51,038 bases of DNA from a virus (Duplodnaviria > Heunggongvirae > Uroviricota > Caudoviricetes), in the IMG/VR virus record IMGVR_UViG_2872180393_000001. One strand, 5' to 3'. The position numbers are program-made. The number at the start of each line of letters is the position of its first letter. Positions within the stretch are counted from its first letter, which is position 1. Below are positions 24,001 to 39,000 of this stretch, in pieces.

Positions 24001-27000
24001 TGGCTGAACTGGAATCTGAAATTCTGCAACTGCGTAAGGCGTTAAATGAAGCTCGCCTTGAGCGAGATATATTAAAAAAAGCAACAGCGTATTTTGCACA
24101 GGAGTCGCTGAAAAATACGCGTTAATCGAACAATGGCGACAACAATTTCCCATTGAAGCGATGTGTCAGGTATTTGGTGTATCCAGGAGCGGTTATTACA
24201 ACTGGGTACAGCATGAACCCTCAGACAGAAAACAAAGTGATGAGCGGCTAAAACTGGAGATTAAGGTGGCACATATCCGCACTCGCGAAACATATGGAAC
24301 CCGGCGGCTCCAGACGGAGCTGGCAGAGAATGGCATCATCGTTGGTCGTGACCGACTGGCACGTCTTCGTAAGGAGCTAAGGCTACGCTGTAAGCAGAAA
24401 CGCAAGTTCAGAGCGACTACGAACCCGAACCACAATCTGCCAGTTGCGCCAAATCTGCTGAACCAGACGTTCGCTCCTACAGCACCAAATCAGGTCTGGG
24501 TGGCGGACCTGACGTATGTTGCCACACAGGAGGGATGGTTGTACCTCGCTGGCATCAAAGATGTTTATACGTGCGAAATTGTCGGCTACGCCATGGGAGA
24601 GCGCATGACAAAAGAGCTGACAGGTAAAGCCCTGTTTATGGCGCTCAGGAGCCAGCGCCCACCTGCCGGGCTAATCCACCACTCTGATCGAGGTTCACAG
24701 TACTGCGCATACGATTACCGGGTCATACAGGAGCAGTTTGGTCTGAAAACATCAATGTCGCGTAAAGGTAACTGTTACGACAACGCTCCGATGGAAAGCT
24801 TCTGGGGAACGCTGAAAAATGAGAGCCTGAGCCACTATCGTTTTAATAACCGGGATGAAGCCATCTCAGTAATACGGGAATACATTGAGATTTTCTACAA
24901 TCGTCAGCGTCGTCACTCTCGTCTGGGGAATATCTCCCCGGCAGCCTTCAGGGAAAAATATCATCATATGGCTGCTTAAAAAAAGAACAAATGGTAGTGT
25001 CCGCTATTGCCAGTACACCTCAGGATGCCTGGCGTGATTTTTACATATCGTATCTGAGAAGAAGTAAAAACGATGTGCCTGATGGTGATCCGGAAGAGGA
25101 TTATGAAGAGAAACTACTCATTGCCAGATGGGAACTGACCGCAGAACAGGCTGTCGCACAGCAGTTAAAAAATCAGGTGTCAAAAGGAAATCTTATCGAT
25201 ACCGGATTTTGTATTTTTGCCCTTAGTAAGCTGGCGATGGCTTTATCCAGTACGCTTGACTCCATTCCTTTGTCCATGCAACGACAGTTCCCGGATTTAA
25301 CGCCGCGTCATATTGATCATCTGAAAATCCTTATTGCTAAGGGTGCGAATCAGTGCGCGCGTGCGGGGGATAAATTACCGGATTTACTCGATGAATATAT
25401 CAGAACAACAACTGAGTAATATGATGGTGGCAGTCACTATCGCACTGCAGCCACTGGTCAGGGTATTGCCGGTGACGGCTGTAGAATGGGCCGATCAAAA
25501 TTATTACCTGCCTAAAGAATCGTCATACGGTGAGGGGGAATGGAAAACGCTGCCGTTTCAGGTCGCCATCATGAACTGCATGGGCAATGACGAGATTCGT
25601 ACAGTTAACCTGATTAAATCTGCCCGTGTTGGTTATACAAAAATGGTGCTTGGTGTGATCGGGTATTTTATTGAGCACAAATCCCGCAACACTCTTCTTT
25701 TTCAGCCGACGGACTCAGCTGCTGAAGATTTTATGAAGTCTCACGTGGAAGCAACAATTCGTGATGTTCCTTGCCTGAAAAAACTTTCTCCCTGGCTGGG
25801 CCGGAAACACCGGGATAATACGCTCACACTGAAGCGTTTTTCCTCTGGTGTGGGGTTCTGGTGTTTGGGTGGTGCTGCTGCCAAAAACTACCGTGAAAAA
25901 TCTGTCGATGTGGTCTGCTATGACGAACTCTCCTCGTTTGAACCGGATGTGGAAAAAGAAGGTTCGCCAACACTGCTTGGCGATAAACGTATTGAAGGTT
26001 CGGTATGGCCAAAATCCATACGCGGTTCAACGCCAAAAATTAAAGGCTCCTGTCAGATTGAAAAAGCTGCGAATGAATCTGCGCATTTCATGCGGTTTTA
26101 TGTCCCTTGCCCTCATTGCGGGGAGGAGCAGTATCTGAAGTTTGGCGATGATGCGACGTCGTTTGGCCTGAAATGGGAGAAGGGTAAACCGGAAACGGTG
26201 TATTACCTGTGTGAACATAATGGCTGCGTGATCCGTCAGTCTGAACTTGATCAGACCGGGGGGCGCTGGATTTGTGACAATACCGGGATGTGGACGCGTG
26301 ACGGTCTGACGTTTTTCAGTGCTTCGGGTAATGAAATTCCGCCGCCGCGCTCCATCACTTTCCATATATGGACGGCGTACAGTCCGTTCACCACCTGGGT
26401 ACAGATAGTCTGTGACTGGCTGGATGCACTGAAAGATCCCAACGGCGTGAAAACTTTTGTGAACACCACGCTGGGCGAGACCTGGGAAGAGGCCGTGGGC
26501 GAAAAACTCGATCACCAGGTACTGATGGATAAGGTTGTGCCTTACACGGCAACGGTGCCTGTCCGGGTGGTTTATCTGACGGCGGGCATTGACTCGCAGC
26601 GAAACCGTTTTGAGATGTATGTCTGGGGGTGGGCTCCGGGAGAGGAAGCCTTTCTGGTGGATAAAATCATCATCATGGGACGTCCTGATGAGGAAGAGAC
26701 GCTGTTACGTGTGGATGCGGCGATCAATAAAAAATACCGCCATGCAGACGGTACCGAAATGACCATTTCCCGTGTCTGCTGGGATATCGGGGGATCGATG
26801 GCGAAATCGTGTATCAGAGGTCAAAAAAACACGGTGTTTTCCGGGTACTGCCGGTAAAAGGTGCCTCTGTCTATGGCAAGCCGGTGATCACCATGCCGAA
26901 AACCCGCAATCAGCGGGTGTGTATCTGTGTGAGGTGGGGACGGATACCGCAAAAGAAATTCTCTATGCCCGAATGAAGGCCGATCCCACCCCTGTGAATG

Positions 27001-36000: not shown

Positions 36001-39000
36001 CTGGGGGTGTTAATCAGTCAGATGGCGCGCGGCAATTTTGGTGCGCTGAGGGGATCCGGGATAACGCTGGCTAACCGTGCCGGATGGACAGGCGCACTGA
36101 TGTCGCCGAAAGGCATGATGACTGGCGGCGTTATTGGCGGACTTGTCGCGGCGGTCCTGGGTCTGGGTAAAGCCTGGCATGACGGCCGGAAGGAGGGCGA
36201 GGAATTTAACCGTCAGCTGGCGCTGACGGGACATTATGCCGGTGTCACTGTCGGGCAGTTGTGGAAACTCAGCCGGGCCATATCCGGGAATGGTATCACG
36301 CAACATGCGGCAGCCGGTGCGCTGGCACAGGTGGTGGGCAGTGGGGCATTTCATGGAAACGATATTGGTATGGTGGCGAAAGCTGCCGCACAGATGGAGC
36401 GATCGGTTGGCCAGTCGGTCAGCGATACCATAAATCAGTTTAAGCGGCTGAAGGATGATCCTGTAAATGCCGCGAAGGCGCTGGACAATGCGCTGCATTT
36501 TTTGACTGCCACTCAGCTTGAGCAGATACGCGTCCTTGGGGAGCAGGGGCGGTCCAGTGATGCGGCCCGGATCGCCATGTCTGCGCTGGCAGAGGAAACC
36601 GGTAAACGCACATCTGATATTGATAATAATCTCAATGCGCTGGGTAGTACGCTGCAAACCTTGTCTGACTGGTGGAAGCAGTTCTGGGATGCGGCCATGA
36701 ATATTGGTCGTGAAGACTCGCTGGATGCGCAGATTGATGCGTTACAGGAAAAAATTCAGCGCGCGAAAAAATATCCGTGGACAAACGCCTCCACACAGGT
36801 GGAGTACGATCAGCAGCGTCTTAACGATCTTCAGGAGAAAAAACGCCGGAAGGATTTGCAGGATGCAAAAGCGCAGGCAGAACGGAATTACCAGGAGCAA
36901 CAGAAACGCCGGAATGCTGAAAATGCCGCGCTGAACCGGATGAATGAAACGGAAGCTGCACGACATCAGCGGGAAATTGCGCGTATTAATGCCATGCAGT
37001 ACGCCGACCAGGCTGTCAGGGATGCGGCGATACAGCGTGAAAATGAACGTTACGAAAAAGCCATTAAGAAAAATACACGGGCAACCCGTAATGATGAGGC
37101 CACCCGGTTATTGCTGCAGTACAGTCAGCAGCAGGCACAGGTGGAAGGGCAGATTGCTGCTGCCAGACAGTCAGCAGGCATTGCCACTGAAAGGATGACT
37201 GAAGCGCATAAACAGCTTCTGGCCCTGCAGCAGCGCATCAGCGACCTGGACGGGAAAAAGCTGACGGCAGATGAAAAGAGTGTGCTGGCCCGTAAGAATG
37301 AGCTGATTCAGGCGCTGACGCTGCTGGATGTGAAACAGCAGGAGCTGCAGAAACAGACAGCGCTTAACGACCTGAGAAAAAAACGGTTCAGCTGACCAGC
37401 CAGCTGGCAGACAAAGAACGTGCACTGCGTGAGCAGCACAATCTGGATATTGCCACTGCAGGTATGGGGGATAAGCAGCGGCAGCGCTACCAGGCACAGT
37501 TGCGCATCCGGCAGGAATACCGGCAACAGTTGCAACAGCTTGAGAATGACAGTCGCCAGAAAGGCACTTACGGGACGGAGGACTACCGGAGGGCTGAGGA
37601 GGTGCTGAAGGGGAGCCTGAAGCGACAACTGAATGAAAACAAACGCTACTGGCAGGAACTGGAAGTGGCGCAGGGCGACTGGAAAAACGGTGCCATGCGG
37701 GCGTTTCAGAATTTTACGGCGGATGCGGATAATGCGGCGGGAACGGCAGAACAGATGTTTACAGTGGCATTCAGCAGTGCCGGTAATGCACTGGTGACAT
37801 TCTGTACCACCGGTAAGCTGAATTTTAAATCCTTCACCTCTTCCCTGTTGTCAGATATGGCCAGAATTATGGCACAGATGGCCATGATGCAGGCGGTAAA
37901 GGGCGTCGGTTCTTTATTCGGCTTCACGACTAATGCTGATGGCGGTGTTTACCAGTCTGCTGATTTGAGTCGCTACAGTGGCACGGTGGTTAACCGTCCG
38001 ACGTTTTTTGCTTTTGCAAAAGGCGCGGGTGTGATGGGGGAAGCGGGACCTGAAGCCATTCTGCCACTGCGTCGCGGTGCTGATGGTAAGCTGGGGGTTG
38101 TGGCGGATACTGGTGGTTCAGGCATGGTGATGTTTGCCCCGCAGTACAACATCGGGATCAATAACGACGGCACGAACGGGCAGATAGGTCCGGCAGCACT
38201 GAAGGTGGTTTATGACCTCGGGAAAAAAGCGGCCGCGGACTTTATGCAACAGCAGGCCCGTGATGGTGGCCGGTTAAGTGGAGCATACCGGTAATGGAGA
38301 CGTTTCGCTGGAAGGTGCGCCCGGATATGAATGTGGTATCAGAGCCAAAAGTGGTGGCAGTGAAGCTGGGTGATGGTTATGAACAGCGTCGCCCGGCGGG
38401 ACTGAATAATCTGCTGTCGACTTACAGCGTGACGATACGTGTTCGTAAAGGTGAACACCCACCTTTAAAAGCCTTTCTGGAACGGCACGGTGGCGTCCGC
38501 GCATTTCAGTGGACGCCACCTTATGACTGGAAACCGATCAGGGTGGTTTGTCGTAAATGGTCGGCAAGCGTGGGGGCGTTATGGGTGACTGTAACGGCCG
38601 ATTTTGAACAGGTGGTGAACTGATGCAGGATATCCGGCAGGAAACACTGAATGAATGCACCCGTGCGGAGCAGTCGGCCAGCGTGGTGCTCTGGGAAATC
38701 GACCTGACAGAGGTCGGTGGAGAACGTTATTTTTTCTGTAATGAGCAGAACGAAAAAGGTGAGCCGGTCACCTGGCAGGGGCGACAGTATCAGCCGTATC
38801 CCATTCAGGGGAGTGGTTTTGAACTGAATGGCAAAGGCACCAGTACGCGCCCCACGCTGACGGTTTCTAACCTGTACGGTATGGTCACCGGGATGGCGGA
38901 AGATCTGCAGAGTCTGGTCGGCGGAACGGTGGTCCGGCGTAAGGTTTACGCCCGTTTTCTGGATGCGGTGAACTTCGTCAACGGAAACAGTGACGCCGAT

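Follow-up and report, generated by a model that had tools for sequence, protein, structure and literature searches.

An ipaH-linked prophage with four interrupted late genes

The DNA analyzed here, IMG/VR record IMGVR_UViG_2872180393_000001 (51,038 nucleotides in full, hereafter the window), contains a lambdoid prophage linked to ipaH, four late genes of which are broken by frameshifts in the deposited sequence. These genes encode the terminase large subunit (A), the portal (B), a head-tail joining protein (FII) and the tape measure (H). Exact-protein look-ups placed the window on the Shigella boydii chromosome CP026846.1 (GCA_002949495.1, 4,856,857 bp), with base 1 of the window at position 1,086,268. 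The prophage is flanked by lpdA on one side and by acnB/yacH on the other, and the ipaH gene lies past the window's right end. The late operon occupies positions 25391–38294 in the order A, W, B, C, D, E, FI, FII, Z, U, V, G, T, H. Its interrupted genes, the runs at which their frames change and a further deletion in H are as follows, with ORF denoting an open reading frame:

25391–27317, + strand: terminase large subunit gene A, deposited as ORFs of 488 and approximately 132–181 amino acids
26789–26793, + strand: G5 run, the true first frameshift in A (G6 to G5); G6 in ERR200301 and most relatives
26915–26917, + strand: G3 run, the second frameshift in A (G4 to G3); G4 in ERR200301 and every other compared locus
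27501–29092, + strand: portal gene B, deposited as an ORF of 460 amino acids and a C-terminal ORF
28756–28759, + strand: G4 run, the frameshift in B (G5 to G4); G5 in ERR200301 and most relatives
32505–32881, + strand: head-tail joining gene FII, whose deposited product is truncated to 66 amino acids
32664–32668, + strand: G5 run, the frameshift in FII (G6 to G5); G6 in ERR200301 and in intact alleles of 125 amino acids
35356–38294, + strand: tape measure gene H, deposited as ORFs of 679 and 276 amino acids
35999–36008, + strand: junction of a private, in-frame deletion of 102 bp (34 amino acids) in H, between two AGCTGGGGGT direct repeats
37377–37383, + strand: A7 run, the frameshift in H (A8 to A7); A8 elsewhere, bar two A9 copies

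The late genes were compared with those of Escherichia coli FDAARGOS_943, the closest relative with a complete genome (99.8–99.9% identical), and of approximately 35 further related loci. All five frame changes were 1-bp deletions within homopolymers, and the run was always the shorter one in the window. In the FDAARGOS_943 annotation, A (642 amino acids), B (530 amino acids) and H (1013 amino acids) are intact and FII is frameshifted. Base-level alignment to this genome revealed four deletions in the window, at 26789–26793, 26915–26917, 28756–28759 and 37377–37383.

The first-pass annotation had assigned homopolymer frameshifts to A (two), B, FII and H. All five proved to be homopolymer deletions, and the position of one, the first in A, was wrong. 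This lesion had been assigned to the A7 run at 26823–26829, which is A7 in all intact-A relatives carrying this allele and reads GA6 in the divergent CFSAN029787. The real lesion is the change from G6 to G5 at 26789–26793, 30 nt upstream of the A7 run, and the wrong-frame ORF continues to a stop codon at 26855–26857. The second A site, placed at approximately 26913–26917, was confirmed as a change from G4 to G3 at 26915–26917, and the B site, placed at approximately 28756–28760, as a change from G5 to G4 at 28756–28759. Similarly, the FII site, given as 32665–32669, corresponds to the run at 32664–32668, shortened from G6 to G5, and the A7 run of H at 37377–37383 is a shortened A8.

The shortened runs were shared to different extents. 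The G3 at the second A site and the A7 in H were unique to the window across the approximately 35 related loci. The G5 at 26789 was also found in CP026776 and in SRR16936277, a noisy Logan contig that has four homopolymer deletions within its last 540 nt and was dropped as confirmation of the shorter run. The G4 at the B run also occurred in CP026776 and in Logan SRR11588744. The FII G5 allele was widespread, being present in copy 1 of FDAARGOS_943, in AKNF01000088 and in several Logan runs, and this run is also polymorphic in nature. The H tract was A8 in approximately 17 assemblies, the exceptions being CP026846 (A7), CP026788 (A9) and the visibly noisy CABEFB020000002 (A9).

Homopolymer runs of at least 4 cover only approximately 6.9% of the bases in 25020–39182, and all five indels fell inside such runs (P ~1.6e-6). 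This concentration is far from chance, and slippage and sequencing error both predict such a pattern. The bias of the sites towards G is compositional rather than strand-specific, as G-runs of at least 4 number 64 and C-runs 13. A GATC (Dam) site, GGGGGATC, directly follows two of the shortened G-runs (26789–26797 and 32664–32672) and is missing at the other sites; its adjacency may indicate that base calling depends on sequence context.

Adding one base per site rendered A, B, FII and H each uninterrupted, with no further stop codons. Repaired A (642 amino acids) has full-length Pfam matches to GpA_ATPase and GpA_nuclease, and the exact protein occurs on approximately 999 contigs. Repaired B (530 amino acids) has a full-length Phage_portal_2 match, and the exact protein was found only in Logan ERR200301. 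Repaired FII (125 amino acids) has a Phage_attach match and is identical to P0064 except that the GTG start is read as V, not M. Repaired H (979 amino acids) matches TMP_2, TMP_4 and Tape_meas_lam_C; neither this protein nor a version of 1013 amino acids with the 34 missing residues restored was present in the protein collection, so the look-ups revealed no independent copy of this H allele. The other H copies retain the 102 bp, and CP097828 and CP026776 carry a different in-frame deletion of 303 bp. In exact-protein look-ups, the truncated products of B and H were found on this chromosome only, and that of A on this chromosome and on the neighbouring accession CP026776 only. The FII product of 66 amino acids occurred on 11–15 contigs.

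Other lesions affect these genes in related assemblies. A +1 lesion in a portal T-run (T4C3 to T6C2, at the equivalent of approximately window position 28490) truncates the portal to 351 amino acids in numerous assemblies of S. flexneri and S. boydii that differ in source. It appears to be a genuine, old pseudogenizing mutation, and the window lacks it. In CABEFB020000002.1 and ADUP01000026.1, many late genes are fragmented (A in four pieces, H in five); homopolymer noise at the assembly level seems a better description of this pattern than decay.

A zero-mismatch twin and the case for undercalled runs

When the exact sequence of the window's major capsid protein was looked up, a twin of the late operon emerged, Logan contig ERR200301_51. 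Aligned with window positions 25000–36008, this contig matched over 11,013 bases with zero mismatches and exactly four gaps. Each gap was one extra G in ERR200301, at both A sites, the B site and the FII site, and the contig encodes intact A (642 amino acids), B (530 amino acids) and FII (125 amino acids). The first-pass annotation had named reads whose run lengths restore single ORFs as the observation that would refute genuine mutation, and ERR200301 provides this outcome for these three genes.

The contig begins 23 nt within the end of an IS600 copy, at the same junction between this insertion sequence (IS) and the small terminase gene Nu1 as in the window. Moreover, its portal protein of 530 amino acids has no other occurrence among approximately 15 billion proteins. 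Based on this shared junction and on a portal allele found nowhere else, ERR200301 and the window share a lineage. The era of the accession and the cleanness of the contig suggest that ERR200301 represents accurate short-read data. Mutation-accumulation studies of wild-type E. coli have yielded roughly one indel per ten substitutions. A difference of four indels and not a single substitution in 11 kb is very unlikely to be due to natural mutation. The repaired ORFs had no signs of relaxed selection (nonsense mutations, extra substitutions) and zero substitutions with respect to the twin, although the low divergence weakens this test. The ERR200301 contig ends at 36008, exactly at the junction of the 102-bp deletion, and the A-run of H is outside its coverage; gpM was too widespread to be used as a probe for an ERR200301 contig spanning this run.

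Two assemblies with neighbouring accession numbers, CP026776 and CP026823, which are presumed to be from the same submission, were evaluated in the same manner. CP026776 matched CP097828 over 12,205 bases with zero mismatches and four G-run deletions, including those at the first A, B and FII runs; CP097828 reads G6 at the first A run and G5 at the B run. The first-A and B deletions that the window shares with CP026776 had been considered as inherited, an interpretation dropped on the basis of this comparison. CP026823 matched CP026807 over 20,330 bases with zero mismatches and 21 gap openings, all of them G/C-run deletions. At approximately 1 per kb, these deletions cannot be biological. All 25 twin-defined deletions in CP026776 and CP026823 were in G/C runs and none was in an A/T run, though such runs are common.

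The same signature was found elsewhere in the CP026846.1 assembly. Within the window, it affects one further gene:

12349–13123, + strand: O-like helix-turn-helix replication gene with two more private 1-bp deletions, G5 to G4 at approximately 12682–12685 and C5 to C4 at approximately 12700–12703

The deletions at 12682 and 12700 split this gene into two ORFs of 124 amino acids each. It is intact (243–258 amino acids) in E2348/69, FDAARGOS_943 and seven other assemblies that have an identical neighbouring protein of 968 amino acids. Outside the prophage, the housekeeping gene acnB carries a private change from G4 to G3 at approximately codon 15 (CP026846.1 position ~1,141,018, 3.7 kb past the window's right end) and is called as 839 instead of 865 amino acids. 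Neither CP119446.1, which has only 3 mismatches to CP026846.1 over 7,963 bases, nor either of two E. coli genomes has this deletion. The first-pass annotation had cited consistency with the IS insertions as an argument for decay; that argument is undercut by the occurrence of the same type of deletion in acnB.

At least four of the five frameshifts are most likely assembly errors: an independent read set from this lineage carries an additional G at every one of these four sites and does not differ otherwise. We put the probability at approximately 0.85 that undercalled G/C runs in CP026846.1 split A, B and FII artificially, these genes most likely being single intact ORFs in the real genome. 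Specifically, when error-prone (presumably long) reads were turned into a consensus, length-dependent undercalls of G/C homopolymers would have persisted. The G6 at 26789, the G4 at 26915, the G5 at 28756 and the G6 at 32664 would each have lost one G, and the lost Gs would have split terminase A, portal B and FII into false fragments. We infer that the deposited CP026846.1 assembly was derived from long reads. Errors in long-read assemblies are mostly homopolymer indels; in the assembly analyzed by others, false deletions predominated and genes were fragmented (PMC12007338). In the twin comparison, the undercalled fraction was 2 of 3 for G6, 1 of 10 for G5 and 1 of 51 for G4.

The first-pass annotation had left both slippage and sequencing or assembly error open. 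Error is favoured for both A sites, B and FII. FII is less certain than A and B because the G5 allele occurs in other strains, including copy 1 of FDAARGOS_943 (copy 2 has G6). The origin of the change from A8 to A7 in H is uncertain; we lean towards an artefact, and H is possibly intact in the real genome.

Several points weigh against undercalling as the cause. First, literature searches did not reveal the sequencing platform of either CP026846.1 or ERR200301, and the strain behind ERR200301 may be closely related to, but not identical with, the one assembled as CP026846.1. Second, the undercall signature does not obviously cover H, as the H site is an A-run and the 25 twin-defined deletions are all in G/C runs. 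Third, there is natural variation at these G-runs: FII is G5 in FDAARGOS_943 and several assemblies, and B is G4 in SRR11588744. Finally, the 13.7-kb left flank of the prophage contains no indel. The twin-derived rates, although lower than the error rate in CP026823, are coherent and agree with both flanks: they predict approximately 0.9 errors in the left flank, where zero were seen, and approximately 0.8 in the 8-kb right flank, where one was seen.

Alternative origins in a defective prophage

A mixed origin, in which the A and B changes are artefacts and FII G5 is an inherited genuine allele and/or the A7 of H is genuine slippage, is possible but on balance unlikely. For FII, copy 1 of FDAARGOS_943 has the same mosaic as the window (8 mismatches in 3.4 kb spanning C–FI versus approximately 90 in others) and carries FII G5 with A, B and H intact. 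The number of contigs encoding the G5 product also argues for an inherited allele. However, the zero-mismatch twin ERR200301 has G6 in FII, and the G5 of CP026776 is contradicted by the zero-mismatch CP097828. Moreover, the near-identical second copy in FDAARGOS_943 reads G6, so the G5 of copy 1 could itself be an unpolished error. FII G5 had been considered clearly genuine because many assemblies share it; this view was downgraded once the zero-mismatch twin showed G6. For H, genuine slippage is consistent with zero of the 25 twin-defined errors being in the common A/T runs, and no run of the region is longer, and hence naturally more mutable, than A8. Against this, the tract departs from A8 in only three assemblies: CP026846, CP026788 and the noisy CABEFB02.

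The prophage has been inactivated by other means. The window contains four copies of IS600 (6322–7593, 23757–25024, 39183–40446 and 48952–50217), and an IS4-family element follows J. Three of the IS600 copies interrupt phage genes:

23757–25024, + strand: IS600 in the small terminase gene Nu1; the junction is identical in the ERR200301 contig
39183–40446, − strand: IS600 in the minor tail gene L
48952–50217, − strand: IS600 in the tail-fibre gene

With three of its genes disrupted by these insertions, the prophage is defective whatever the frameshift status of A, B, FII and H. Whether the terminase, portal and tape measure are functional, which the first-pass annotation had made the stake of the distinction, accordingly matters less than had been stated. 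Copy 1 of FDAARGOS_943 has insertions that the window lacks: ISEc60, with an 11-bp target duplication, after FII (at window 32823–32833), and IS1 in V (at window 34399–34408).

Genuine replication slippage at all five sites in this IS600-inactivated prophage, which would make terminase, portal, FII and tape measure true pseudogenes, is highly improbable. The three gene-disrupting IS600 copies and the IS4-family element do show that the element is decaying, and natural frameshifts do occur in this prophage family (the portal T-run insertion, FII G5 and the B G4 of SRR11588744). However, slippage is very unlikely to have produced the four substitution-free indels that separate the window from ERR200301, a same-lineage read set with intact runs, across 11 kb. 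Private G/C-run deletions are also present in acnB and the O-like gene, and the neighbouring accessions have 4 and 21 such deletions compared with their zero-substitution twins. Furthermore, the truncated B and H products were confined to this contig; that of A had one further occurrence, on CP026776, which is contradicted by CP097828. FII G5 does recur, but in other lineages.

A recent burst of homopolymer slippage in this S. boydii lineage, caused for instance by a transient defect in mismatch repair, would make the deletions real in prophage and core genes alike and ERR200301 the pre-burst state; we consider this scarcely credible. Programmed or phase-variable recoding that regulates the morphogenesis genes can effectively be dismissed: homopolymer tracts are the usual substrate of phase variation and lambda-like phages use a programmed frameshift in G/GT, but dozens of genomes have single ORFs (642, 530, 125 and 1013 amino acids) with the longer run, no shifted architecture is conserved and the same event occurs in acnB. 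A search of the G/T region for the slippery site GGGAAAG revealed nothing relevant.

Further features of the element and its relatives

The closest chromosomal relatives, CP119446.1, CP049278.1 and LPTQ01000005.1, have 0–2 mismatches over the 13.7-kb left flank. In these three genomes, IS600-associated deletion has removed most of the prophage, leaving int-xis-antA at one end and DUF4376-ipaH at the other. The long form persists in the window strain and in ERR200301. An exact look-up of the DUF4376 protein returned other genomes only, and the right flank was reached via the IS600-truncated tail-fibre product.

The protein adjacent to the O-like gene (13354–16260) is a Toprim-domain primase/helicase-like protein of 968 amino acids, and its exact sequence is indexed in 180 blocks of the protein collection. 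A weak internal LAGLIDADG_3 match and a Hint-like segment (C...HNT) suggest an intein inside the helicase P-loop region. Within the O-like gene, positions 12640–12705 hold three tandem repeats of approximately 21–22 bp (GGGGTGGGGCAGGAGCTGCCC) that are possibly origin iterons; both private deletions of this gene are inside them. In the intergenic Q-holin region, the window differs from a 97%-identical E. coli prophage at 20031 (T6 versus T7) and 20564 (G4 versus G5). These differences may be further undercalls, the comparator being too distant to tell.

Consequences and comparison with known systems

The finding is best taken as a data-quality flag for this record and the neighbouring accessions rather than as a biological one; the biology of the element, defective via IS600, is unchanged. 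Pseudogenes called in terminase, portal and FII of this record should not be taken as evidence for decay of the prophage or of the genome. If the rate of approximately 0.1 per kb holds, several hundred further "frameshifted" genes across the genome probably have the same origin. CP026776 and CP026823 share the problem, which bears on pseudogene counts in comparative genomics of Shigella.

The late operon has approximately 90% nucleotide identity to the head genes of phage 21 and the tail genes of mEp460. Its gene order is like that of phage 21 and lambda (Nu1-A-W-B-C-D-E-FI-FII-Z-U-V-G-T-H-M-L), and the Pfam families are full-length after repair. Unlike phage 21 and lambda, the window carries a prophage made defective by its IS600 insertions (Nu1, L, tail fibre) and located between lpdA and acnB beside ipaH.

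The genuine slippage pseudogenes of Shigella and enteroinvasive E. coli prophages affect genes and tract types shared with the window, as in the portal T-run insertion and FII G5. However, those alleles recur across independent assemblies, whereas the A, B and H alleles of the window do not, save for the truncated A on CP026776. The window also resembles the undercalls described for long-read assemblies (PMC12007338, Kastor), in which single-base false deletions in homopolymers create apparent pseudogenes. The window deletions rise in frequency with run length, are missing from an independent, presumably short-read assembly of the same lineage and recur at the same runs in CP026776. The two cases differ in base composition: A/T runs were hit more in the nanopore case of PMC12007338, whereas the twin comparisons described here revealed deletions in G/C runs only.

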